IMG/VR virus record: IMGVR_UViG_3300025072_002801
Length of the DNA stretch: 64,000 bases
From: a virus
Lineage: Duplodnaviria; Heunggongvirae; Uroviricota; Caudoviricetes
Direction: 5' to 3' (one strand)
The notes beneath the pieces were generated by a model. The model was not told where the DNA came from. It did no database searches and saw only the letters and a program-made list of their open reading frames with translations. A program made the position numbers and the translations under genes. Of this stretch, positions 37,496 through 59,791 are shown piece after piece. Numbering within the stretch: position 1 is the stretch's first letter; each line of letters starts with the position of its first letter.

Positions 37496-37537
37496 AGAAG
37501 CATCTTAAGTTTGTTTCTATTTCACAGGATAATGATT

Positions 37538-39604
37538 ATGGAAAACCGTTTGCAGAGAATCGCTGGGCGATTTAACACCGAAAAATTTAAAAATCTAAAT
37601 GAAGAACTTTCTTTCTCGGAATATTTAGACGCAGCATATGAGCGACCTGCCCTAGTTCGCACAGCTTTTCAAAAGTTGTATGATATGATCATGGCTGACG
37701 GGACTCATGAATTTGAGAGATATAGAAAGAAGCTCGTTCATTATAATTTCTTTGATAATCCCAAAATTCCAATTTTTGGTTTGGAGCAAACTCTTGATGA
37801 ATTGATGAAATTCATTAGAGGTGCTGCTGGAGGATTTGGAACAGAGAAGAGAGTTCTTCTTTTGCATGGACCAGTTGGATCTTCCAAGTCAACGATTTGC
37901 CGCCTGATGAAAAGGGGATTGGAGAATTACTCTAACACTGATGATGGCGCTTGGTACAGTTATAAGTGGGTCAACCTTCCTGTTGGACAAAACGGAATTT
38001 ACACCAAAGAAGAATGCATGAGTCCAATGCATGAAGATCCTTTGAAGTTGCTCCCTCAAGAACTTAGAGAAGAAGTTCTTAAAGAGTTGAACGATATTAT
38101 TGTTGAACAAAATGACGGTGACGCTCCATACACATTAAAGTGTGAGGGAGAGTTGAATCCAAGATGCAAACTTTTCATGGAGCTTTTGCTTAAGAGGTAT
38201 GATGGAGACTTGGAAAAAGTTTTGGCAGAACACATCAGTGTGGTTAGAATGGTTTATTCCGAAGCCGATAGAGTTGGGATTGCTACATTCCAACCAAAAG
38301 ATGAGAAGAATCAAGATGCCACAGAATTGACTGGCGATATTGACTATTCTCAAATTGCTCATTGGGGATCTGACAGTGATCCTCGTGCGTTTAATTTTGA
38401 TGGAGAATTCTGCGTAGGAAACAGGGGCGTAGTTGAATTTATTGAAATGCTCAAATTGCAACAGGAGTTTTTGTACGATCTGTTGGAAGCAACTCAGGAT
38501 CATTCGATTAAGCCAAAGAAGTTTGCCAAGGTGACAATTGATGAAGTTTTGATTGGTCATACAAACCAGCCAGAATTTGAAAAGTTGAAGTCTAATCCTC
38601 ACATGGAAGCTTTGAGAGATAGAACTATTAAAATTGATGTTCCTTATCTTTTGACTATATCAGACGAATTAAAAGTGTTGCAGCAGGATTATAGTCCTGA
38701 CAACATCAAGCAGCACGTAGCTCCTCACACCTTAGAGATGGCTGCTTTGTGGGCTGTTTTGACTAGACTTGAAGATGGTGGCGACAATGAGTTGAAAGAC
38801 TTGGTGGAGAAAGCCAAGCTTTATGATGGTCAATACCTTCCTGGTTGGACCGAAGATAAAGTCAAAGAGTTGAAAGACAAGTATTTAGATGAAGGAATGA
38901 ACAAGGGCGTAAGTGCCAGATATGTTCAGGATAAAATCTCTAATTGCTTGAGTGACAATCATGCTTACATAAACCCATTCATGGTTTTGAATGAGATCAG
39001 AGAAGGGCTTGGACAATCATCATTGATAGACAATGAAGAGGACCGTGCAAAGTATGAGACAGCAGTTGAGCTTACCATCAAAGAGTATGACGAAGTTGTG
39101 AAGTCAGAAGTTCAGAAAGCTTTGGTTGCAGATGAAAATGCCATCATTCGTCTTTGCACTCAATACATTGATAATGTTATGGCTCACAATCGTGGATCAA
39201 AGATTAGAAATAAGTTTACTGGTCGAGATCAAGAGCCTGACGAAAGATTGATGCGTTCGATTGAAGAGAAGATTGGAATTGCTTCCATCAAGGCAGATGA
39301 TTATAGACGATCTGTTTCAGAGTTTATTGGAGATTATTCCCACGAAGGCAAAGAGTTTAAGTGGGACTCAAATACTCAGCTTAAGAAGGCTTTGGAAATG
39401 AAGCTTTTCGAAGACACAAAGGATCAGGTCAAGTTGTCCGCATTGAGCGATGCAGCTAATGTTGTTGATCCTGACACCCAGAAAAAGATTGACCTTTTGA
39501 AAACTCGTTTGATTGAACAGTTCGGTTATAATGACGAATCTGCTCGTGACGTTTTGGAGCATGTTGGTGGAATCTTTGCGAGAGGCGACATTGACGACGA
39601 GTAA
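37538..39604 (+). CDS. prkA: PrkA/YeaG family AAA+ serine protein kinase
   Basis: 'LLLHGPVGSSKS', 'PMHEDPL', 'NQDATELTG', 'DPRAFNFDG', 'NRGVVEFIEMLK', 'EALRDR'. Confidence 0.95.
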   Translation: MENRLQRIAGRFNTEKFKNLNEELSFSEYLDAAYERPALVRTAFQKLYDMIMADGTHEFERYRKKLVHYNFFDNPKIPIFGLEQTLDELMKFIRGAAGGFGTEKRVLLLHGPVGSSKSTICRLMKRGLENYSNTDDGAWYSYKWVNLPVGQNGIYTKEECMSPMHEDPLKLLPQELREEVLKELNDIIVEQNDGDAPYTLKCEGELNPRCKLFMELLLKRYDGDLEKVLAEHISVVRMVYSEADRVGIATFQPKDEKNQDATELTGDIDYSQIAHWGSDSDPRAFNFDGEFCVGNRGVVEFIEMLKLQQEFLYDLLEATQDHSIKPKKFAKVTIDEVLIGHTNQPEFEKLKSNPHMEALRDRTIKIDVPYLLTISDELKVLQQDYSPDNIKQHVAPHTLEMAALWAVLTRLEDGGDNELKDLVEKAKLYDGQYLPGWTEDKVKELKDKYLDEGMNKGVSARYVQDKISNCLSDNHAYINPFMVLNEIREGLGQSSLIDNEEDRAKYETAVELTIKEYDEVVKSEVQKALVADENAIIRLCTQYIDNVMAHNRGSKIRNKFTGRDQEPDERLMRSIEEKIGIASIKADDYRRSVSEFIGDYSHEGKEFKWDSNTQLKKALEMKLFEDTKDQVKLSALSDAANVVDPDTQKKIDLLKTRLIEQFGYNDESARDVLEHVGGIFARGDIDDE

Positions 39605-39637
39605 TCGTCTCATTGTTCAAATCTATTATCCTGTGTG

Positions 39638-39668
39638 AGGCTCGCTCGTCCTGTGGGCGGGCGAGCCT
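39638..39668. other. GC-rich intercistronic hairpin
   Basis: AGGCTCGCTCGTCC-TGT-GGGCGGGCGAGCCT (includes G-U pairs); no long U-tract. Confidence 0.6.
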
Positions 39669-39693
39669 TATCTTTTATAGTTGGAGTATTAAA

Positions 39694-40887
39694 GTGCCAA
39701 GAAGAATAGAACAAGATCATAAACAATTTCGTGATGTGGTGTCTGGAAGAATTCGCAAAGCCTTGAAGAAGCATGTGAAGACAGGTCAGATATTTCCAAG
39801 AAGAAGTAAGAACGGAAAAATATCAATTGCAATTCCAGAGCTTGACATTCCTCATCTTGTTTTTGGAGATTCTGGTGGTGGAGGAATTGCCAGAGGACCA
39901 GGGAAGAAGGGGCAAGTAATTGGCAAGGACGATGATGGTCAAGGTAAGGGGAATGAAGCTGGTGAAGGCGAAGGCGAAGGCATTGAAATTCAATTAGACT
40001 TGGAAGAAGTCTTGAAATTCATGGCTGGAGAACTTGAACTTCCTCCGATGAAACCAAAAGACAATGATACTGTCGAAGAAACTTTTTTGAGATACAACAG
40101 TCTTTCTCTTCAAGGTCCTAATTCATTAAGGCATGGAAGAAAAACTCTTCAACAAGCATTGAAGAGAACAGCCGCTTCTGGAGATTGGGATAATCTTCAC
40201 ACGTTGCCAGGATTTCCTGATCCAATGAGAATGATCACTCCGCAAAAGAGTGACTTCAGGTATCGTCAATATACAGAGCATCATAAACCTGCAAGTAATG
40301 CAGTTATATTTTTCGCTCGTGATGGATCTGGTTCCATGGACGAAAAGAAGTGCGAAATTGTAAGTGATATGAGTTGGTGGATTGATGTTTGGATTAGACA
40401 GTTTTATAAAAAGGTTGAGCGAGTCTATGTCTGGCACGATTGGGCTGCACAAGAAGTTGACGAAGACAAGTTTTACAACTATCGTTATGGTGGAGGAACA
40501 ATGTGTTCGTCTGCTATGAATTTGATTGCCAAGAACTTAGAGGACAGATTCAATCCCAAGAAGTGGAATGTGTATGTGTTCTATTTTACTGATGGCGATA
40601 ACATTCGTGGCGACAATGACGTGTTTGCTGGTACTATAAATAAGTTTCTTGGTCCACAAAACGTTAATTTCATTGGACTCACACAAGTTTATAGCTACAA
40701 TTACGATAACAGCTTGAAGAGATTTGTTGATGATTCTCTTGAAAACGGAATATTAAACCCAGGACATATTAAAACGACAGCAATTGGTGATGGTGCTGGA
40801 TGGAAGGGTTTGACAACTGAGGATCGTGATGAAGCTGTCACAAAGGCGATTAAAGACTTACTAGGCAAAAACCAAATTACAGCATAA
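39694..40887 (+). CDS. yeaH: YeaH/YhbH (DUF444, vWA-like) protein
   Basis: GGAG RBS before GTG 39694; 'IEQDHKQFR', 'DFRYR', 'ARDGSGSM', 'GGTMCSSA', 'FTDGDN'. Confidence 0.92.
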   Translation: MPRRIEQDHKQFRDVVSGRIRKALKKHVKTGQIFPRRSKNGKISIAIPELDIPHLVFGDSGGGGIARGPGKKGQVIGKDDDGQGKGNEAGEGEGEGIEIQLDLEEVLKFMAGELELPPMKPKDNDTVEETFLRYNSLSLQGPNSLRHGRKTLQQALKRTAASGDWDNLHTLPGFPDPMRMITPQKSDFRYRQYTEHHKPASNAVIFFARDGSGSMDEKKCEIVSDMSWWIDVWIRQFYKKVERVYVWHDWAAQEVDEDKFYNYRYGGGTMCSSAMNLIAKNLEDRFNPKKWNVYVFYFTDGDNIRGDNDVFAGTINKFLGPQNVNFIGLTQVYSYNYDNSLKRFVDDSLENGILNPGHIKTTAIGDGAGWKGLTTEDRDEAVTKAIKDLLGKNQITA

Positions 40888-40898
40888 GAGAGATAGCA

Positions 40899-42512
40899 AT
40901 GGCAAAGAGTTTGATGAGAGGTAACGCACTGTTGGTTGGTAGCAATACTATCCCAGGCGTAAAGCCACCAGAAGAGATGAAGAGATTGATCCCAGAGATT
41001 TTGCAAGCATGCAGAGATTTTGGTTTAGATTTTTGGCCTACTGTCGTGCAATGGTTGGATTATTCTGAGATCAGTGAAGTGGCTGCATATGGAGGCTTCC
41101 CAGTTCGATACCCACATTGGAAGTGGGGAATGGAGTATGAGAAGTTGTCTGTAGGGTTTGAGCATGGAATGCATCGTATTTATGAAATGGTCATCAATAC
41201 AAATCCTTGTTATATATATTTCTTGAATTCAAATACATTAGTTGATAACGTGACTGTTTTGGCTCACGCAACTGGTCATAATGATTTCTTTAAAAACAAT
41301 GTTCGTTTTGCGCCAACTCAATCTGAAACTCACAACATGATGAACACGTTGGCTAATCATGGAACCCGTATACGCAGATATATGTCAAGGTGGGGAAATG
41401 AGAGAGTTACAGAGTTCATTGATCACGTTATGAGACTAGACACTCTTGTAGACCCAGCACAAGCTTGGCAGAGAAGGGAAAGTAAAGACCTTAATCTTAA
41501 AGACAAGAGAGAGTATCACCATGCTCGACATATAGACGTGCCAGAAGGTCATGATTATATGGAAGACTGGATGAATCCTCAGTCTTGGAAAGATAAAGAG
41601 AATCAGAGGATCAAAAAGATAGAAGCTGCCGAGGAGATAGAGTTATTTAAAAAACCGACCCGAAATATATTAGGGTACTTGAGAGATAACGCGCCTCTTA
41701 AACCATGGCAGGCAGACATTGTAGACATGCTTTATGATGAGGCTTTGTATTTTTCTCCTCAAAGAATTACAAAAACTCTCAATGAAGGATGGGCTAGTTA
41801 TGTTGATTATAATATTATGGCTCGACAAGGATATGCCACTCTAGATGGAGAAAAGTCTGGATCTGGGATTATTGAGTACGCAGACCATAAAGCAGGAGTT
41901 CTTGGTGGCAAGTATTCCATGAATCCATACAAGCTTGGCTTTGAACTGTTTCTTGACATTGAGGAACGTTGGAATAAAGGTCGTTTCGGTCCTGAATTTG
42001 ATGCCTGCACTAACATGCAAGAGAGAAAAGATTGGGATTTGGAATTAGGTCTTGGGAAAGAAAAGGTTTTTGAAGTTCGAAAGTGTCATGATGATTATAC
42101 AGCCATTCATGAGTTTTTCACTCCAGAGTTCTGTGTAGAGAAAGAGTTCTTTGAATGGGAGAAAAGACCTAATGGAGAGTATGTTATAGCAAACAAAGAT
42201 TTTAAAACCATAAAGCAAAAGCTGATGCAAAACCATTTGAACGGCGGACTGCCAGATATTCGTCTTGTTGATCCCAATTATCGTGGCAAGGGAGTGTTTT
42301 TGTTGGAGCATTTCGATGACGACGGAAGACCGCTTTATGATCCTTATGTCAAAGAGTCATTGTCGTCTATTTATAGATTGTGGAAGAATCCAGTAGCATT
42401 GTCCACCAGAAACAAAGAAGGTGAAGAGTTTGTTTGTGTCGCTACAGGTGAGGATGCAGATAAAGACGTTGCATGGTTTACAAGAGAGGAATTTGAAGGT
42501 GAAGATATATAG
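40899..42512 (+). CDS. spoVR: SpoVR/YcgB family protein
   Basis: 'GFPVRYPHWKWG', 'IYEMVINTNPC', 'AHATGHNDFFKNN', 'TKTLNEGWASY', 'NPYKLG'. Confidence 0.95.
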   Translation: MAKSLMRGNALLVGSNTIPGVKPPEEMKRLIPEILQACRDFGLDFWPTVVQWLDYSEISEVAAYGGFPVRYPHWKWGMEYEKLSVGFEHGMHRIYEMVINTNPCYIYFLNSNTLVDNVTVLAHATGHNDFFKNNVRFAPTQSETHNMMNTLANHGTRIRRYMSRWGNERVTEFIDHVMRLDTLVDPAQAWQRRESKDLNLKDKREYHHARHIDVPEGHDYMEDWMNPQSWKDKENQRIKKIEAAEEIELFKKPTRNILGYLRDNAPLKPWQADIVDMLYDEALYFSPQRITKTLNEGWASYVDYNIMARQGYATLDGEKSGSGIIEYADHKAGVLGGKYSMNPYKLGFELFLDIEERWNKGRFGPEFDACTNMQERKDWDLELGLGKEKVFEVRKCHDDYTAIHEFFTPEFCVEKEFFEWEKRPNGEYVIANKDFKTIKQKLMQNHLNGGLPDIRLVDPNYRGKGVFLLEHFDDDGRPLYDPYVKESLSSIYRLWKNPVALSTRNKEGEEFVCVATGEDADKDVAWFTREEFEGEDI

Positions 42513-53040: not shown

Positions 53041-53072
53041 GTATTTATTTAGTCAATAGGCTAGATATGTGT

Positions 53073-53381
53073 ATGAAAAGTTTCCAACAACATATCGTAG
53101 AATTAGACTCCACAGGGCAAAATCCAAGTAATGCTGGGGCTGCACCTGCTGGTGCTCAAGCTGCTCCACCAGAAAACGACATGCGTTACGCAAACAAAAG
53201 CGTAGGAGCCATGGGAGCTAAAGAAGATTACTTCTTATCACAATTGCAGGCAAAGGCATCAACTCTCGATCCAAATCAGAGATTTAAGATTTTGGGAGAT
53301 GTAATTATGACTTTGTATCCAGACGCAGGCGAAAGAATGAGATACGTAAATCTTCTTAGGCAGCAAACCCAAGCAGGATAA
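53073..53381 (+). CDS. Small protein with a capsid-targeting-like N-terminus
   Basis: 'MKSFQQHIVELD'; TAGATA 5 nt before ATG 53073. Confidence 0.65.
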   Translation: MKSFQQHIVELDSTGQNPSNAGAAPAGAQAAPPENDMRYANKSVGAMGAKEDYFLSQLQAKASTLDPNQRFKILGDVIMTLYPDAGERMRYVNLLRQQTQAG

Positions 53382-53389
53382 TTTTAAAG

Positions 53390-53770
53390 ATGAAATTCAA
53401 AGAGTGGCTGTTCAGTGAATCAGTGAGGCATAAGTCTGTGGGCTTCTTGCGATTCAAGAAGCCCCCTGTTGTCGTTGTCGAGGTAGACAAGGATATAGTT
53501 GAATATTATGTTAAGCTTATCCCTAAGAACGTTTCTTACACCATTCCAACCGCTCCTCCTCATATAGTCGTTTCTGACTCCGAGAAAATACAGGGCAATT
53601 GGGGTAATCTAGAGGGAAAGAAGACTTCCTTTGAATATGAAAATTATGTACATTCAGACAAAGATCACTTTTGGCTAAATGCATATTCTGATACAATAGG
53701 TGAGATTAGAGATATGTTGGGATTGCCTAATGTGTCGAGCTACAAAATCATCATTGCTAATAAGGGCTAG
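53390..53770 (+). CDS. Protein with a capsid-targeting-like N-terminus; possible degenerate 2H phosphoesterase
   Basis: 'MKFKEWLFSE'; one 'PPHIVV' motif, with the second His motif not evident. Confidence 0.5.
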   Translation: MKFKEWLFSESVRHKSVGFLRFKKPPVVVVEVDKDIVEYYVKLIPKNVSYTIPTAPPHIVVSDSEKIQGNWGNLEGKKTSFEYENYVHSDKDHFWLNAYSDTIGEIRDMLGLPNVSSYKIIIANKG

Positions 53771-53774
53771 TATT

Positions 53775-54119
53775 ATGGGCATCGGTCCATTTAGAAGATC
53801 TTCTTCCGGCGTTTCTGCGCCCGCTCCAAACCCCAATCCTGATAAGTACGAAATCATTACAGTAAAAGAGGAAGGTAATGTCGTAATGATTGAGCTTAAG
53901 TACGAAGATTGTACGACATACGAGGGGCGTAAATTATTAGTTTATTATGGCGTTACTGTAGCTGATTTATGGAAGCAAGGATCTTTAGATCCGCATTTCA
54001 CAGACAGAGCAGATGTCATTTCCCCCGTTGCCAGATTGCGACCAAATGCTTTGGGGTGGATATTGGCTGAGTCATTGGCAGATGATCTTAATGGAATGAT
54101 GAGTGATGACAACAAGTAG
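53775..54119 (+). CDS. Hypothetical protein
   Basis: 'KYEDCTTYEGRKLLVY', 'LDPHF', 'PVARLRP'. Confidence 0.65.
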   Translation: MGIGPFRRSSSGVSAPAPNPNPDKYEIITVKEEGNVVMIELKYEDCTTYEGRKLLVYYGVTVADLWKQGSLDPHFTDRADVISPVARLRPNALGWILAESLADDLNGMMSDDNK

Positions 54120-54270
54120 AGCAATGTATTCTTGGTGCATATTTAGCAAGAATGATTGTCTTTTATTTTCTCATGCTATGCGAGCAAGTCGGACTTCCTG
54201 GTCGCTGAATAATTCGTGGTGCAAGTATGTTGGTGAGGAAAATCATTTTTTATGGTGGGCGGAACAGTGA
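54106..54270 (+). CDS. WxxY-array member (54 aa, not in the ORF track)
   Basis: MTTSRAMYSWCIF...TSWSLNNSWCKYVGEE; aligns with ORF 54863. Confidence 0.6.
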   Translation: MTTSRAMYSWCIFSKNDCLLFSHAMRASRTSWSLNNSWCKYVGEENHFLWWAEQ

Positions 54271-54333
54271 GTGACATGATAATGAAAGGCATCCCAACAA
54301 TCTAACAAAAGAAATTATGGACGATTGGGAAAA

Positions 54334-54671
54334 TTATATAGATGGTTAATTCAACTCGTAGAAGAAGAAAGAAGCGGGAGGCTCGTCGTGTAGAGCAATT
54401 GCATAATGAACATAAAAAAACGAATCGCGAAACTAAAGAGCATGCAGCTTTGATGATTTTTGAATGCGATGACTATGGTTATCGTTATAGCAGTCTTCTT
54501 TCTCAATCCAGACGCAGTATACTTTGTCAAATTAACGGATGGGAAAGATATTCCATTAATGAAAGACCGAATCCGTTATGGCGACCGCATTTTTCAATGA
54601 AAGAGCTTCTGAGAGATTGGGGAACTTATATAGATGGTTAATTCAACTCGTAGAAGAAGAAAGAAGCGGGA
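54334..54671 (+). repeat. 46-nt exact direct repeat spanning gene junctions (54334-54379 and 54626-54671)
   Basis: TTATATAGATGGTTAATTCAACTCGTAGAAGAAGAAAGAAGCGGGA. Confidence 0.9.
54342..54641 (+). CDS. WxxY-array member
   Basis: MVNSTRRRRKKREAR...NGWERYSINE...RDWGTYIDG. Confidence 0.7.
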   Translation: MVNSTRRRRKKREARRVEQLHNEHKKTNRETKEHAALMIFECDDYGYRYSSLLSQSRRSILCQINGWERYSINERPNPLWRPHFSMKELLRDWGTYIDG

Positions 54672-54870
54672 AGCGAGAGCGGCGAGAGATGTGGCGAGAT
54701 ATTGGTGGGGAGTTCCACGTAGCCGGTTGCCACTCGCCTCTATAAATGAATCTGTTCATGCATGGGGAACACTTATTTGTGATCCCATTTTTTGCACCTA
54801 TACGTTGCCAAAGAATGTTTTTATTATAGACAATTGGGAAAGTTATATGGAGGGAAAATTAAATGATTAA
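54634..54870 (+). CDS. WxxY-array member
   Basis: Same N-terminus as 54342; 'DNWESYMEG'. Confidence 0.7.
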   Translation: MVNSTRRRRKKREARAARDVARYWWGVPRSRLPLASINESVHAWGTLICDPIFCTYTLPKNVFIIDNWESYMEGKLND

Positions 54871-55093
54871 TCCCTGCTATGAAATATTTCTTGGAGAGTG
54901 GAGCACATGTGTGTTGGAGTTTAAGTCCTCCTCCATAACGAGTGCGATGTATGCTTGGAGTAGATTTGAGGAATGCGACAAAGCACAAAAAACTGCGAGC
55001 CATACCAGTTCATCATGGTCGATTAGAGGTTCTTGGTGCGATTTTATAGATCAAGATTATTATGAAATCATAGAATTGTTATACCCAGAATGA
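54863..55093 (+). CDS. WxxY-array member
   Basis: 'YAWSRFEE', 'GSWCDFIDQD'. Confidence 0.68.
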   Translation: MINPCYEIFLGEWSTCVLEFKSSSITSAMYAWSRFEECDKAQKTASHTSSSWSIRGSWCDFIDQDYYEIIELLYPE

Positions 55094-55189
55094 GTTATGA
55101 ATTATGGAATATTTAGAATTATCATATTTGGTGCATTGGCATTACATTGCCTTTAATGCGTAGAGTTTATCCACAACTGATACTCAATC

Positions 55190-55495
55190 ATGAGTGAAAT
55201 AAATAAATACAACAGTCCAATCGTAATAAATGTAATTTCTGATTGGTCTAATTTTGAAAAAGAAGAAAAGTCACTCCCGCCCTTTGGCAGCAAAAGGAGT
55301 TTGATCAAAGACTCTTGGTGTAATTATATAAATGAGGATAGTTTAGAAGAAGAATACGGAATTGGATGTTTTGATAGAATTTCCATTCCTGTTCGCAGAG
55401 CCTATCCGCAACTTATTGCGAACAAGATTGTTGATGTTCAGCCGTTAAAAAATGCTGCATCTATTTTTTATTTAAAATACAGGTATGTTCAATAA
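55190..55495 (+). CDS. WxxY-array member fused to a gp23 major-capsid (Gol-region) fragment
   Basis: 'DSWCNYINED'; C-terminal 'PVRRAYPQLIANKIVDVQPL...IFYLKYRY'. Confidence 0.75.
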   Translation: MSEINKYNSPIVINVISDWSNFEKEEKSLPPFGSKRSLIKDSWCNYINEDSLEEEYGIGCFDRISIPVRRAYPQLIANKIVDVQPLKNAASIFYLKYRYVQ

Positions 55496-55779
55496 TGTTC
55501 ATAGTAGATTCAATTTCAGATGTTGACGTGTTTCCATATCCATATCCATATCCGCTTGAAGAAATTGGAAAGTTGACAATTGCTTGGAAGAGGTATGAAG
55601 ATGGCGAAGTTGCTTCTCATCCTTTTGGTATAATCAGCAGAGCAGATGCTTCAGTCAGGACATGCAAGCAATCTTGGTGCAATTACATAGACGAATCATA
55701 TGAAAACATATTTGATCCACAATATCTTTCTTGGAAGGATTATGTGGAGAATATGATTCGTATAATGAAAGGGATATAA
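55495..55779 (+). CDS. WxxY-array member
   Basis: 'IAWKRYEDG', 'QSWCNYIDES', 'SWKDYVEN'. Confidence 0.7.
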   Translation: MFIVDSISDVDVFPYPYPYPLEEIGKLTIAWKRYEDGEVASHPFGIISRADASVRTCKQSWCNYIDESYENIFDPQYLSWKDYVENMIRIMKGI

Positions 55780-55791
55780 AGGTGGAATATT

Positions 55792-56151
55792 ATGATTACA
55801 AATGAAGAAATCTTAAATGCTTTGGATGGTCTTGAGAAACCAGTTTATGATGTTCATGAACTTGCAGATGCATGGTACTCTTCAGGAGCAATGCTAAGAG
55901 CTTTAGGCAAAGACACTGGCGAATACACAAAGGTTATTAGAGTTCGCGTGAAAGGCGATGAGAACTCGCCACGACCTTATAGCCGTGGAATTATTGAATT
56001 ACATCCAACGGAAGACGACAAGGTTCGAATTAGTTGTTATTGTTGTTTTGTGAAAGATGAAGATGTAGAAAAGGGTGAATTCGCCTTAGAAGATCTAAAA
56101 GAAGCTGTCATGTCATTAAAAGATCACAATTGTCCTCCATGGCCAGGGTAA
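55792..56151 (+). CDS. Hypothetical protein embedded in the array
   Basis: GGTGG RBS; only a weak motif ('DAWYSS'). Confidence 0.65.
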   Translation: MITNEEILNALDGLEKPVYDVHELADAWYSSGAMLRALGKDTGEYTKVIRVRVKGDENSPRPYSRGIIELHPTEDDKVRISCYCCFVKDEDVEKGEFALEDLKEAVMSLKDHNCPPWPG

Positions 56152-56154
56152 AAC

Positions 56155-56391
56155 ATGTTAGTTAGATTAGACAATGTTGCAGTAGAAACAGGCAACATAA
56201 CATATGTGATAGATCGCTGGGATGATCCTGGCGTAGACTATAATGGAGAAGCCGTTAGGCCACATACAAGGGTTCATTTCGGTATTAAAGATTACCTGCG
56301 TGTTTATACTCCATACTTGGACGTATTAGATCAATTAAAACGCCCTCACACTATGTTGGATGATTGGGAGAGTTATGCAAGAAATCAGTGA
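56155..56391 (+). CDS. Array member ending in 'DDWESYARNQ'
   Basis: Motif at the C-terminus; the 21-nt repeat TGGGAGAGTTATGCAAGAAAT (56365-56385) is also at 56555-56575. Confidence 0.62.
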   Translation: MLVRLDNVAVETGNITYVIDRWDDPGVDYNGEAVRPHTRVHFGIKDYLRVYTPYLDVLDQLKRPHTMLDDWESYARNQ

Positions 56392-56584
56392 AATATTGGC
56401 GGGACATTCTGGGGAGATGTCTAGGTTGGCAGATGCCTGGAGAAGATATATGGGAGAAGAATTTTCACCTTCTAGAACAATGTTTGGAGTTGTTTGGATG
56501 TTAGCTCCCGCACCAGATGAAGTGGTTAACGCAGTATGGTATTTGAAGGGATCATGGGAGAGTTATGCAAGAAATTCGAGGTGA
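56375..56584 (+). CDS. WxxY-array member
   Basis: MQEI start; 'DAWRRYMGEE', 'GSWESYARN'. Confidence 0.65.
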   Translation: MQEISEILAGHSGEMSRLADAWRRYMGEEFSPSRTMFGVVWMLAPAPDEVVNAVWYLKGSWESYARNSR

Positions 56585-56807
56585 TATTGAAAATTTGAAC
56601 AATGAATTGACTTTGGATTATCCTTATGGAGAGATGCCTGTCTTGCTAGAGTCTTGGAGAAGATATGTTGGAGAAGAGTCTGTTCTCCTTCGACACAGAA
56701 TTTCGAGAGAAGATTTGGCATGGAGAGCAGTATGGTCAGCCGAGGCGTCATGGTGCGATTATATAAATGAAGATCACTTAGAGATTATGAAGGCTTGTTG
56801 TTTATGA
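56565..56807 (+). CDS. WxxY-array member
   Basis: MQEI start; 'ESWRRYVGEE', 'ASWCDYINED'. Confidence 0.68.
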   Translation: MQEIRGDIENLNNELTLDYPYGEMPVLLESWRRYVGEESVLLRHRISREDLAWRAVWSAEASWCDYINEDHLEIMKACCL

Positions 56808-57094
56808 TTACCAACATTTTATATTCTTTCCAAACAGAGGTTCTCAATGTTGATAATTGGGCGGGCGTAGGATATGATTTTAATTACGGAGGAACAAGAG
56901 GAAATTTGATTGATGGCTGGTCGTCTTATGAAGGGTTGGATTTGCCAGAAGAACACTACTTTCCAGAGATACAACTCTTCATAGAGTCAGAAGAAATAGT
57001 CGCAACTACGAGAAAATTAAAAATGGAGTGGACTTATGAACTAGAAGAAGATTATAAGTCTGTGAAGTCTTTAGGGGATTTTGAAATTGATTAA
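56795..57094 (+). CDS. WxxY-array member fused to a short gp23 capsid fragment
   Basis: 'DGWSSYEG'; 'IESEEIVATTRKLKMEWTYELEEDYKSV'. Confidence 0.7.
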   Translation: MLFMITNILYSFQTEVLNVDNWAGVGYDFNYGGTRGNLIDGWSSYEGLDLPEEHYFPEIQLFIESEEIVATTRKLKMEWTYELEEDYKSVKSLGDFEID

Positions 57095-57563
57095 CAAAAT
57101 TTTACGTTCATTTGCAGAACACGTAGATTGTCCTATGTGTGACGTATATCATGGAACGGTGTTGGGCGTTTCTCGTTATTCGGAGATGCCAACATACCCA
57201 GAAAAAGAAGTTAAAATTCCTTTTGACAATCCTGCTTTTGAAGTGAGCAAAAATCTTCTTCAAGGATGGACAGGTTACTGCGAAGAAGGAGGATTAGCTT
57301 TTTCATCAAGCGTTTACGATTCTGAGGTTCGAGTACATAGTTTTTATCACAATCCATATCTAGACGTAGTTCCTGTAGCCCCACAAAGCCGAAAGCTAAA
57401 AGCTGTTTGGTCACGAGAAGCACAGGAAGATCTTAGAGCGGTTCATAATATTGATGCAGCAGCCAAATTATCTGAAGTCCTTGCTAGAGAGATAGTAGCG
57501 GAAATAGATGCAGAAGTAATTGAAGATATTTCAAACAATGTAGATCCATATTATATGGATTAA
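57081..57563 (+). CDS. Array member fused to a gp23 capsid backbone-helix fragment
   Basis: 'QGWTGYCEE'; 'SRKLKAVWSREAQEDLRAVHNIDAAAKLSEVLAREIVAEIDAEVI'. Confidence 0.8.
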   Translation: MKLINKILRSFAEHVDCPMCDVYHGTVLGVSRYSEMPTYPEKEVKIPFDNPAFEVSKNLLQGWTGYCEEGGLAFSSSVYDSEVRVHSFYHNPYLDVVPVAPQSRKLKAVWSREAQEDLRAVHNIDAAAKLSEVLAREIVAEIDAEVIEDISNNVDPYYMD

Positions 57564-57596
57564 CAAATCTTTACTATTATTTGCAGAAAGACAGTT

Positions 57597-57809
57597 ATGG
57601 GCAAAATAAGATGGGCATCTTTATGGGCGACATCATTCTATGAAGCACATACTGCTCCTGCAATCACCTCTTTGAAAAATGATTGGGCTCGATACATGGA
57701 AGACGAAAATCCAGGGGATTCTAGAGTTCCATGTAGAATAAAGCGGAGCATCATGACATCGTGGAGCAAGCATATTTCGTTGTCGAATGGATGGCTGGGC
57801 AATCTTTAA
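57597..57809 (+). CDS. WxxY-array member
   Basis: 'NDWARYMEDE', 'TSWSKHIS'. Confidence 0.62.
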   Translation: MGKIRWASLWATSFYEAHTAPAITSLKNDWARYMEDENPGDSRVPCRIKRSIMTSWSKHISLSNGWLGNL

Positions 57810-59791
57810 AAATAATCCGCCCATATCTGCATTGCTCGTCCTAACTTAGAGAAATATTCATCAGTGGATTCCTCTAATCCTTTCCCTATCTCTATGATAC
57901 ATTTCTTTGGTCCTGTCCGAAATCCTTCGCCAGTCAATTGAATGGAATCTATAAGTTCCCAGAAGTTTTCGTTCGCAGCAATCCCAGGAGCTTCTTTGAC
58001 CAAGTTCACAAGAGGGGTGCTGGCTCTTGTGTGATTTATAAATGGTCGTCCCACTGAGATTGAAAGATCAAGATGGTCGCATATTTTTTTAAATATTATG
58101 CCAAACCATATGTCATCAAATCGCCTGTAAGGGCTGTCCTGCCCCATTAGAGGAAAGAAGGATGTAACAGCCATAAATCCTCTGAAAGCCAAATTCATGC
58201 CACAATTTTTAACAACACAATTGTTTATGGTGTATGTGTGATTGTCTTTGACGTTTAAGTTGTAAACATATCCACTGTGATTGAAATTTGATGTTTTTTC
58301 TACTTTAAAATAAATGTAGGAATCATTTTTTCTCCACTTTGATGGAGTGCTTTCATTCTTTTTTTTCCATTTTCCTTTTACTTCCAATACATTGTTGATG
58401 AATTCGCTTGCTTGATCTCCGTATAAAGATATTTGATAAGCTCTTTTTTTGTTTTTTGATTTTGGCTGATATTCATTTAAAGAACAGTAAAATCCCAAAC
58501 TAGAAATTAAATATTTAATTTGATTTGCCAAGTCCCAACTTATTGTTTTTAAGTTGCAATATGGTCTATTTCTGTTTGTTCCAACATGCCCATCTCCAGC
58601 AAAATAGCCAGACATTAGTTTTTTAATGTTTTTACATCTTATCAAATCACAATTTATTTTTTTTGAATAAGAGTATTGCCCGCACCAATTGAAAAACCAA
58701 AAAGCTATATGCTTTCCATAGCATTCAATTCGAAGTTTGTTGTTTGAAATGTTAATTTTAGATTCTTTGTTGAATCTTGTTTTTAAGAAATTTATAATAA
58801 ATTTGCCAAGTGTGTCAATTTCTTTTGCGTGAAGAGAAAATGCAACACCACTGAAATTGTGAATGTTTTTCATTTTTTTTGATTTTGTGAAATTGCCTTC
58901 CGCCAAAAATAGTCCGATTGCATACATTTCATCGTCAGATAGTATGTTTTTTTTGAAATTTTTTAAAATGGGAGAAGCTAAGAAGTCTCCCTTTTTTATG
59001 TTTTTGGCCTTTTTGTATCCATTTAATGTCAATATCTCATGATCATCGGTGGTTTTTATGGACTGTCTCCTGCCAGCTATTTTTATTTCTTGACATTTTT
59101 TATTATTTACATGACTTCTTATAACTGCATTAATTGGATGTATTTCGTTTGAGTTTGTTATAATTTCATTGTCTGGAATTAGTTTTTCAATACGAATTAC
59201 AGTTCCATCACTTTTGGTAACTAATTGTTTTTCTAAAAAACACAGAGGGAAATACTGCCCTTTAGGGATGATGTAGTTATCTTTGGGCAGATGTATATCT
59301 GGAATACTGCCTGAAATCTGTTGTATCGAGTCCCAATCTGGTATTCCTTCCCATAATCCCATATTTGCGACCACATTATCTAAAGTTCCAAGATTGTAAT
59401 ATGGCAATCCCCTTGTTCTTGTGCCTGGAATAGAAGGTCGCCATTTTGGAGCTTTTGTGATTGAATCAATGTGTTCTTCGCAAAAAAGCTCAGATGTCCC
59501 TGGCAAACAGTCATCATCTAGGGTAAAAATAAATTGCGCCCCCATTTGGTGTGCTTTAAGGAATCCGTAACTTCTTATTGCACTGTCCCTTTTGGAGATT
59601 ATCCAGGCATTATCTTGTAAATCTTCATGAATTTCATTCCAAGAGTAATGATATTTGCAGTTGATGTCGAATGTTTTAGTAGGGTTGTCTTCTACTATTA
59701 TGATTTCATCCCAGTCTTTCCTTGATTCCCAGGAGTTGAGGAATTCTAAAATGCAATTTTCACGTATGGTTGGGACAACTAGAACTTTCAT
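57806..59791 (-). CDS. Reversibly-glycosylated-polypeptide / UDP-sugar mutase-like (GT75) protein, intein-containing
   Basis: 'VVPTIR', 'DSAIRSYG', 'TLDDDC', 'RGLPY', 'GLWEGIPDWD'; 'FPL|CGMNLAF' restored after splicing; 'RFDDIW', 'G.P.I.H.RAS'. Confidence 0.8.
   Translation of the reverse strand: MKVLVVPTIRENCILEFLNSWESRKDWDEIIIVEDNPTKTFDINCKYHYSWNEIHEDLQDNAWIISKRDSAIRSYGFLKAHQMGAQFIFTLDDDCLPGTSELFCEEHIDSITKAPKWRPSIPGTRTRGLPYYNLGTLDNVVANMGLWEGIPDWDSIQQISGSIPDIHLPKDNYIIPKGQYFPLCFLEKQLVTKSDGTVIRIEKLIPDNEIITNSNEIHPINAVIRSHVNNKKCQEIKIAGRRQSIKTTDDHEILTLNGYKKAKNIKKGDFLASPILKNFKKNILSDDEMYAIGLFLAEGNFTKSKKMKNIHNFSGVAFSLHAKEIDTLGKFIINFLKTRFNKESKINISNNKLRIECYGKHIAFWFFNWCGQYSYSKKINCDLIRCKNIKKLMSGYFAGDGHVGTNRNRPYCNLKTISWDLANQIKYLISSLGFYCSLNEYQPKSKNKKRAYQISLYGDQASEFINNVLEVKGKWKKKNESTPSKWRKNDSYIYFKVEKTSNFNHSGYVYNLNVKDNHTYTINNCVVKNCGMNLAFRGFMAVTSFFPLMGQDSPYRRFDDIWFGIIFKKICDHLDLSISVGRPFINHTRASTPLVNLVKEAPGIAANENFWELIDSIQLTGEGFRTGPKKCIIEIGKGLEESTDEYFSKLGRAMQIWADYF
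58205..59242 (-). mobile_element. Intein (346 aa) with a LAGLIDADG homing endonuclease
   Basis: CFLEKQLV...VYNLNV...HTY...VVKN followed by Cys+1; 'IGLFLAEGN' and 'SGYFAGDGH'. Confidence 0.88.

Follow-up and report, generated by a model that had tools for sequence, protein, structure and literature searches.

The T-even internal-protein loci, which encode the gp21-processed proteins IPI, IPII, IPIII and Alt, are the closest known system to the row of small genes described here. In T4, internal proteins attach to the scaffolding core through the capsid targeting sequence MKTYQEFIAE; gp21, a protease that cleaves behind L/I-x-E, cuts this sequence off (PMC8442874, PMC9026906). C-terminal propeptides also exist, and internal proteins are diverse outside of the targeting sequence (PMC8442874, PMC9026906, PMC3012670). 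The row analyzed here belongs to a marine megaphage (IMG/VR record IMGVR_UViG_3300025072_002801), of whose 69-kb contig we examined 64 kb, referred to below as the window. Positions 54103-57809 (+ strand) hold 12 open reading frames (ORFs) of 69-160 aa called by gene finders, one weak ORF (g04) and one stranded remnant. This array is predicted from its sequence to be a real, translated gene family that has undergone lineage-specific expansion. Its members share a tryptophan motif of the form aromatic-x-x-aromatic-aliphatic-x-E, the same pattern as MKTYQEFIAE and the gp21 L/I-x-E rule, and several of them join this motif to short blocks copied from core phage proteins.

A row of mini-genes sharing a tryptophan motif

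The window was scanned in all six frames for W-x-x-[YF]-[ILMVAC]-x-[EDGN]. There were 25 matches in the 64 kb, 14 of which fell within this 3.7-kb stretch, all on the + strand. Following residue shuffling within ORFs, 0.25 matches were expected, and none of 20,000 shuffles reached 14. An array of mini-genes built from W motifs had been proposed at this position in an earlier reading of the DNA made without database searches (the sequence-only reading); both the array and its location were borne out, and the motif signal survived the shuffling controls. Tryptophan makes up 3.9% of array residues. The five SWC-type copies vary synonymously (TGT/TGC, TAT/TAC, GAG/GAA and TCT/TCA/TCG), indicating that it is the protein that is constrained. 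When scored with a codon model derived from the long window genes, the annotated frame had the best codon usage of the six for 16/16 ORFs, with g04 having the weakest score among array ORFs. Neighbouring ORFs mostly overlap, either as ATGA or TAATG or by 8-20 nt.

Alignment of the members defined a family unit of approximately 50 aa with two near-invariant tryptophans. This double-Trp unit, or handle, has [AS]-W-x-R-[YF] in its first helix and, about 25 residues on, [SD]-W-[CE]-x-Y-[IVM]-x-E; in other members, the second motif occurs singly as a C-terminal tag. When leave-one-out hidden Markov models (HMMs) were used to search 14,361 ORFs, g08, g14, g10, g09, g04 and g13 each ranked top (E-values: 3e-9 to 5e-4), while g07, g12, g15, g16 and the remnant carry single motif copies only. 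Within the row, six ORFs are thus solid members and two (g17 and g06) are marginal; g11 falls outside the family, and both g04 and the remnant look degenerate. An AlphaFold2 model of g14, computed with its paralogues as the alignment, is a helix-loop-helix with one Trp motif per helix (helices 23-42, 48-67 and 71-79), although confidence in this model is modest (pLDDT 69, predicted TM-score [pTM] 0.33). Nine of the 13 array members have a pI of 4.1-6.3; the values for g04, g06, g07 and g17 are 7.9-9.9.

A structure atlas search with g10 returned unnamed clusters only. The motif was also considered as an Atg8-binding sequence (LC3-interacting region/Atg8-interacting motif, LIR/AIM), but this was rejected because position +3 is Tyr rather than Leu, Ile or Val. 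A degenerate DNA scan of IMG/VR for SWC[ND]YI[ND]E gave a single hit, which is about chance level as approximately two chance hits are expected. This hit (L088:3-329) lies in an unrelated 173-kb viral contig and encodes a protein ending in GYSWCDYIDEE; it was the best non-member for the module HMM, though not significantly so (E-value about 0.3).

Three repeats are found at gene junctions (J1 to J3 in Table 1), with each J1 copy running from the tail of a gene into the beginning of the one that follows. The two exact repeats reported previously (46 nt at 54334/54626 and 21 nt at 56365/56555) are real, J3 is additional, and the stranded remnant (54275-54349) repeats the g06 tail in truncated form. 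Such features had been taken as signs of ongoing duplication. The repeats and remnant are indeed present, but synonymous sites are saturated between paralogue pairs (raw ratio of nonsynonymous to synonymous differences, pN/pS, 0.5-0.8), so most of the duplications are old, and no copy-number variant was seen in eight assemblies and four runs. The junction repeats alone look recent or homogenized. The C-terminal motif copies (WESYARN and W-G/E-x-YIDG) overlap the following gene's Shine-Dalgarno sequence and ATG, and so are under added DNA-level constraint that does not apply to the internal copies; the codons of the g12 tag, for example, contain the ribosome-binding site and start codon of g13. 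The 15 N-terminal residues of g06 (54342-54386) and g07 (54634-54678) are identical, MVNSTRRRRKKREAR, and are encoded by J1. This peptide looks like an arginine-rich nucleic-acid-binding peptide.

The region was letter-identical across eight independently assembled contigs from different samples, and for this reason the array is not a misassembly. Contigs from four further marine runs contained the region without any single-nucleotide polymorphism, indel or joint. Among the public runs listed as containing it, none is an RNA run. As the copies in all samples are identical, they offer no population variation to analyze. Comparison of the region with 50,697 GenBank phages (blastn) gave no match, and no loci related to g16 or g03 were found in IMG/VR.

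Capsid and probable ribonucleotide reductase blocks and their relatives

Three members contain segments of a major capsid protein (MCP), as had been noted from the sequence. An MCP HMM of approximately 490 positions was built from 81 capsid proteins of a clade of LR756511-like huge phages. Matches to this profile were found for g09 (positions 47-100, E-value: 1e-14), g15 (positions 240-282, E-value: 9e-12) and g16 (positions 256-312, E-value: 6e-20). The Pfam family of T4-type capsid proteins, PF07068, was matched by g16 (E-value: 3.4e-14) and g15 (E-value: 3.4e-6), while g09 scored 23.9 bits, slightly below the cut-off of 24.4; PHROG 138 agrees with the assignment of all three. These short pieces, all in the region studied, are the sole matches to the T4-type capsid family on the contig. 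The g09 block (residues 68-99, aligned to PF07068 positions 12-44) is a homologue of the gp23 N-terminal region that contains the T4 Gol peptide.

The aligned stretches are among the most constant parts of the capsid protein: 84-89% of these positions do not vary among the 81 capsid proteins, and the fragments retain about 60-65% of these invariant residues. Each mini-protein covers only 37-57 of the approximately 490 positions, in a chain of 96-160 aa. A complete HK97 fold (N-arm, E-loop, spine helix, P-domain sheet and A domain) in a chain of about 450-520 aa is not present in any of them; with both the A domain and the P-domain sheet missing, none could serve as a capsid subunit. The blocks of g15 and g16 come from one and the same capsid region but resemble each other only distantly; they are therefore independent fusions and not parts of one gene. 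A complex prediction with the capsid blocks of g16 and g09 gave a score of 0.02, which has no bearing for or against binding.

A fourth block is probably derived from a different protein. The 18 N-terminal residues of g08 (NPCYEIFLGEWSTCVLE) align with the active-site Cys/Glu loop of ribonucleotide reductase, at positions 382-402 of PHROG 367, with an E-value of 0.01; this is also the sole match of the contig to this PHROG, at an E-value of 3.9e-4. The evidence for this block is weaker than that for the capsid blocks. Because of the g08 match, cargo is probably not restricted to capsid segments, and the earlier description of capsid-only cargo was too narrow; other lineages (see below) also use quite different tags. 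No cargo was detected in the remaining members using Pfam or PHROGs at relaxed thresholds, and a protein search of LR756511 with g08 found nothing.

The contig L096, a distant relative, is syntenic: three genes lie upstream of the same RGP-type glycosyltransferase and DnaE. One of these genes starts with MKTFQEF, one encodes an 81-aa protein (P0006) and one a 166-aa protein. P0006 is an orthologue of g09 in which both the handle motif (SLIK-SW..I.E) and the capsid block are kept. Over 59 aligned codons, the two are 59% identical, with pN 0.32, pS 0.74 and a dN/dS of about 0.12, indicative of purifying selection. It follows that motif and block were fused long ago, that selection has maintained the fusion, and that g09 is not a decayed capsid gene. 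Since P0006 is the one W-motif gene that could be confidently recognized in L096, the dozen copies found here represent a lineage-specific expansion. Two further assignments in L096 were rejected: the 166-aa "double-W" protein was not supported as a family member by BLASTP or the module HMM, and the MKTFQEF gene, which occupies the position of g01, showed no significant similarity to it. Ten loci surrounding other RGP glycosyltransferase homologues (L098-L107) contained no capsid fragment and no W-motif array.

When g09 was used as a phmmer query against 1.84 billion representative proteins, 40 matches besides itself were obtained, nearly all of them 68-250 aa in length. About six of these have a capsid-like N-terminus and may be truncated capsid calls. 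About 30 clusters combine the same capsid block with unrelated ends bearing lineage-specific Trp tags, including C-terminal [VI][ND]W[KL]KEGF, RWKVQxRW, DEWEV, MKTY.EW and SWANCIGE. Capsid-block mini-proteins are a large, conserved protein class, and there is a substantial chance that the class defined by a handle plus a core-protein block is something new.

L108:5001-5231 is a capsid-block mini-gene of 76 aa whose C-terminal tag is VDWKKEGF; it is located 4 kb from a full 483-aa capsid gene (L108:9242-10231) on the same 50.7-kb contig, in a neighbourhood that also includes ClpP-like and C92 peptidase genes. L114:1319-1693 encodes a capsid-block mini-protein whose own tag, [FY]-x-[DE]-W-x-[DT], occurs three times (FDDWQD, YTEWRD and YSEWKT), which mirrors the multi-copy motif of the array described here. 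P0039, a 91-aa metagenomic protein, has two capsid blocks telescoped into one mini-protein, as a spine-helix block is joined directly to the Gol-region block; it ends in the tag IDWKTHGF.

Gene order and surroundings

The genes of the row, its junction repeats and other features of the window are listed in Table 1.

Table 1. Positions and characteristics of the mini-genes, junction repeats and other window features
Feature	Position	Strand	Characteristics
g01	53067..53381	+	Heads the co-directional block; capsid-targeting-like N-terminus MKSFQQHIVE; not a double-Trp member
g02	53390..53770	+	Capsid-targeting-like N-terminal pattern MKFKEWLFSE; PHROG 12204 (function unknown)
g03	53775..54119	+	PHROG 13501 (function unknown); context gene outside the family
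g04	54103..54270	+	Double-Trp, leave-one-out HMM E-value 4e-4; degenerate look, with GTG start and uncalled by gene finders
remnant	54275..54349	+	Ends in DDWENYIDG; truncated g06-tail copy plus J1; degenerate look, uncalled by gene finders
g06	54342..54641	+	Arg-rich N-terminus, internal WERY, C-terminal DWGTYIDG; marginal member (E-value 0.2, rank 1)
g07	54634..54870	+	One W motif, NWESYMEG, near the C-terminus; member by motif alone
g08	54863..55093	+	Solid double-Trp, leave-one-out E-value 3e-9; probable N-terminal ribonucleotide reductase-like block
g09	55190..55495	+	Double-Trp handle (W19, W43) joined to capsid N-arm/first E-loop-strand block
g10	55495..55779	+	Solid double-Trp, leave-one-out E-value 7e-8; third W motif SWKDYVEN
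g11	55792..56151	+	Embedded in the row, non-member; HPT..ISCYCC
g12	56155..56391	+	Unrelated body, C-terminal tag DDWESYARNQ
g13	56375..56584	+	Double-Trp (AWRRYMGEE ... SWESYARN), leave-one-out E-value 5e-4
g14	56565..56807	+	Solid double-Trp (SWRRYVGEE ... SWCDYINED), leave-one-out E-value 6.5e-9
g15	56804..57094	+	ATGA overlap with g14; W motif DGWSSYEG, then capsid E-loop-return/spine-helix block
g16	57081..57563	+	W motif QGWTGYCEEG, then second, independent capsid spine-helix block
g17	57597..57809	+	Last of the row; marginal double-Trp (NDWARYMEDE), rank 1, E-value 0.055
Junction repeat J1	54308-54382, 54600-54674	+	75 nt, 88% identical, about 46 exact nt
Junction repeat J2	56365-56385, 56555-56575	+	21 exact nt; WESYARN, GGGAGAG plus ATG of the next gene
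Junction repeat J3	57086-57119, 57555-57588	+	82% identical; weaker third copy at 56803
Gene starts with targeting-like N-terminus	13401, 24422, 32060, 34992, 35355, 35551, 36304, 53040, 53073, 53390		
PrkA - DUF444 (YeaH) - SpoVR (YcgB)	37511-42512	+	Complete phage-encoded operon
RGP-type glycosyltransferase	57806-59791	-	Closes the row

An unrelated gene embedded in the row, g11, encodes a 119-aa protein (HPTEDDKVRISCYCC). It is probably a compact E2/UBC-like protein: its AlphaFold2 model has a pTM of 0.66, and the top 50 Foldseek matches in the PDB were all E2 enzymes, although these matches were weak (E-values: 0.08-0.45, TM-scores: 0.41-0.50). A homologue with 63% identity (P0046) is encoded in the high-GC contig L110; the gene downstream of it shows no similarity to g12.

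CheckV rates the 69-kb contig as 14% complete, from which a phage genome of roughly 0.5 Mb is estimated; a public contig of 389 kb also carries g14. Other window genes include PrkA, DUF444, SpoVR, several intein-bearing genes and a split DnaE. The glycosyltransferase gene that closes the row is itself split by an intein with a LAGLIDADG endonuclease, while its 317-aa orthologue in L096 has no intein. The T4 late-promoter consensus TATAAATA had four matches in the window against 3.8 expected, which is uninformative, and scans for sigma-70 promoters and terminators gave counts below the shuffle expectation.

Possible functions and comparison with known systems

At least 10 unrelated window proteins start with M-x(0-6)-[FWY]-x-x-[FWY]-[LIVM]-x(0-2)-[ED], which is consistent with the earlier observation that the motif of the array recurs at the N-termini of other genes; inside long ORFs, this pattern occurs 1.4 times per 1000 aa. 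Two of these starts belong to tiny Cys-rich proteins (MKTWKTFVEG.. and MKTWKTFLEE..) and another to a 754-aa protein. In g09, the second motif aligns position-for-position with the capsid sequence LFNE (g09 N48-E49 corresponding to capsid N47-E48), located 16-19 residues before the ISIP block, where T4-type propeptide cleavage is expected. W19 of g09 likewise aligns with W18 of the capsid N-terminus.

The explanation that we favour is that the mini-proteins are handle-addressed fragment mimics directed to the prohead, in which each block would engage the usual binding partners of the part that it copies, and the common handle would tie all members to one shared partner. The likeliest such partner would be the prohead core together with its gp21-type protease, because the handle has the pattern of the T4 targeting and cleavage sequences, this pattern recurs at the N-termini of at least 10 other proteins of the phage, and the motif stands at the presumed cleavage position in g09 and its orthologue. 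The row would then be an internal-protein-like locus whose products enter proheads and are processed there to small peptides by cleavage behind each motif Glu. We consider this prohead-directed role a serious possibility that stops somewhat short of being probable, as several observations weigh against it. Comparison of the double-Trp module with the capsid N-terminal profile (hhalign) was not significant (probability 0.1), so that the equivalence of cleavage sites is positional only. While T4 has its targeting sequence at the N-terminus, the motif copies are for the most part found inside the array proteins or at their C-termini; in g13 and g14 the motif would be N-terminal only if internal ATGs serve as starts. 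Most members are acidic, in contrast to the basic T4 internal proteins. Conservation of the C-terminal motifs may be partly DNA-level, a ribonucleotide reductase block has no obvious business in a prohead, and tags of other lineages (C-terminal ..NWKKEGF and RWKVQDRW) are unlike protease sites. Finally, the 69-kb contig contains none of the full capsid, scaffold and protease genes of the phage.

The mini-proteins might instead remain in the cytoplasm and compete with the full-length capsid protein (and ribonucleotide reductase) for its binders. These could be Lit/Gol- or CapRel-type sensors, EF-Tu or the subunits of competing T4-like phages, and the handle would recruit a partner outside the head, such as the phage's own ubiquitin-like machinery. 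Lit and CapRel sense the capsid protein via short motifs (bioRxiv 10.64898/2026.01.04.697583), and the blocks come from where core proteins are most conserved, with that of g09 being homologous to the Gol region. Because handles vary among lineages while the block is constant, a fast-evolving partner fits better than conserved head machinery; the probable reductase block likewise suits a general mimic of the core proteome better than a head component, and the E2-like g11 is found within the row. Yet a trigger peptide in free form ought to switch a sensor on rather than block it, the active-site loop of ribonucleotide reductase is not an assembly interface, none of the families identified here is of the defence or counter-defence type, and the g11 homologue in L110 is without such neighbours. 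Action in the cytoplasm is thus possible, if rather doubtful. It is less probable still that the double-Trp unit is a plain structural domain, with Trp residues packing two helices and blocks gained as accidental fusions in a hyperplastic region, and we regard this as unlikely. The helix-loop-helix model with both tryptophans on helices would fit such a domain, as would the lack of significant similarity between handle and capsid N-terminus and the identification of cargo in just three or four of about 12 members. It would not be expected, however, that the same capsid block would occur with Trp tags in about 30 independent protein clusters, that the g09 fusion would be under purifying selection in a distant relative, that g15 and g16 would have gained the same capsid region independently, or that single W motifs would occur as detached C-terminal tags (g12, g07 and the remnant).

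The remaining explanations deny the row a function, and both are effectively excluded. If it were debris, made up of recombination scars and decaying duplicates in which the motif is kept by its overlap with ribosome-binding sites and start codons, then junction repeats, a stranded remnant, the degenerate look of g04 and the raw pN/pS of the paralogues would all be expected, and the WESY codons do read GGGAGAG followed by ATG. The internal SWCxYIxE copies, however, are off the junctions and synonymously variable, codon usage is of the coding type throughout, the ORFs are intact, tightly coupled and identical across many samples, and the g09 orthologue has the low dN/dS given above, making debris highly improbable. 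A capsid gene that has decayed or been split, or an artefact of assembly, is the least credible of all; a decayed capsid gene and a misassembly had been named in the sequence-only reading among the findings that would overturn it. The three capsid pieces do occur in N-to-C order, but g15 and g16 overlap in capsid coverage and the pieces span only profile positions 47-100 and 240-312, each in frame with a W motif. In L108 a mini-gene even lies beside a full capsid gene on one contig, and the eight letter-identical assemblies argue against an artefact. This alternative was therefore ruled out by the purifying selection on g09, the shared region of g15 and g16 and the identity of the assemblies.

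If the mini-proteins are addressed fragment mimics, the array would be an expanded example of an undescribed class of phage counter-measures. If the handle is a prohead address, then this megaphage would load its capsid with a diversifying set of peptides, and the T4 internal-protein paradigm would be extended to internal and C-terminal signals. If the blocks are mimics, phages would be turning copies of the peptides that they conserve most into competitors; these peptides are the same features read by bacterial immunity (the Lit/Gol, CapRel and Avs families), and this would represent a new principle of counter-defence or inter-phage competition as well as a natural source of inhibitory protein fragments. 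A tentative generalization, which may well prove too broad, is that huge T4-related phages as a group carry libraries of such mimics. In these libraries, core-proteome blocks (capsid, ribonucleotide reductase and others) on lineage-specific Trp handles would compete against host sensors or co-infecting relatives and be delivered to one machine, whether prohead, protease or ubiquitin-like system.

The sequence-only reading knew of no described equivalent. This holds for capsid-fragment mini-genes, of which full-text literature searches found no description, but a partial analogue exists in the T-even internal-protein loci, and three other systems can also be compared. Eukaryotic microProteins and inhibitory (dominant-negative) fragments obtained experimentally act by competition, as short copies of an interaction block. 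The concept is the same as the one proposed here, although there is no homology and no counterpart to the shared handle, and an inhibitory activity of the array proteins would be by analogy. The gp23/gp24-type capsid and vertex proteins (PF07068, PHROG 138, HK97 fold) are related by significant local matches in which most invariant residues are kept, but the array proteins are fragments of these and not family members in a functional sense. The Gol peptide of T4 gp23, involved in Lit/EF-Tu exclusion, lies in the region to which the g09 block is homologous, and a short capsid peptide acting by itself, as in this system and in CapRel-type motif sensing, is a precedent for a free capsid block being active. 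Gol, however, is part of a full capsid protein and triggers a host defence, while the g09 block is carried on a handle by a separate conserved gene.

The T-even loci remain the nearest parallel. For the array products, targeting, cleavage and packaging are predictions by analogy. Like these loci, the array consists of small, fast-diverging, non-core genes that share only a short aromatic-x-x-aromatic-aliphatic-x-E motif ending according to the L/I-x-E rule, in a phage with a T4-type capsid protein (PF07068) and with the same pattern on the N-termini of many other proteins in the genome. It differs in that the motif usually lies inside the protein or at its C-terminus, often in two or three copies, in that its proteins are mostly acidic where the T-even internal proteins are basic, and in that its cargo consists of copied blocks of core proteins where the T-even proteins carry independent folds such as IPI*.

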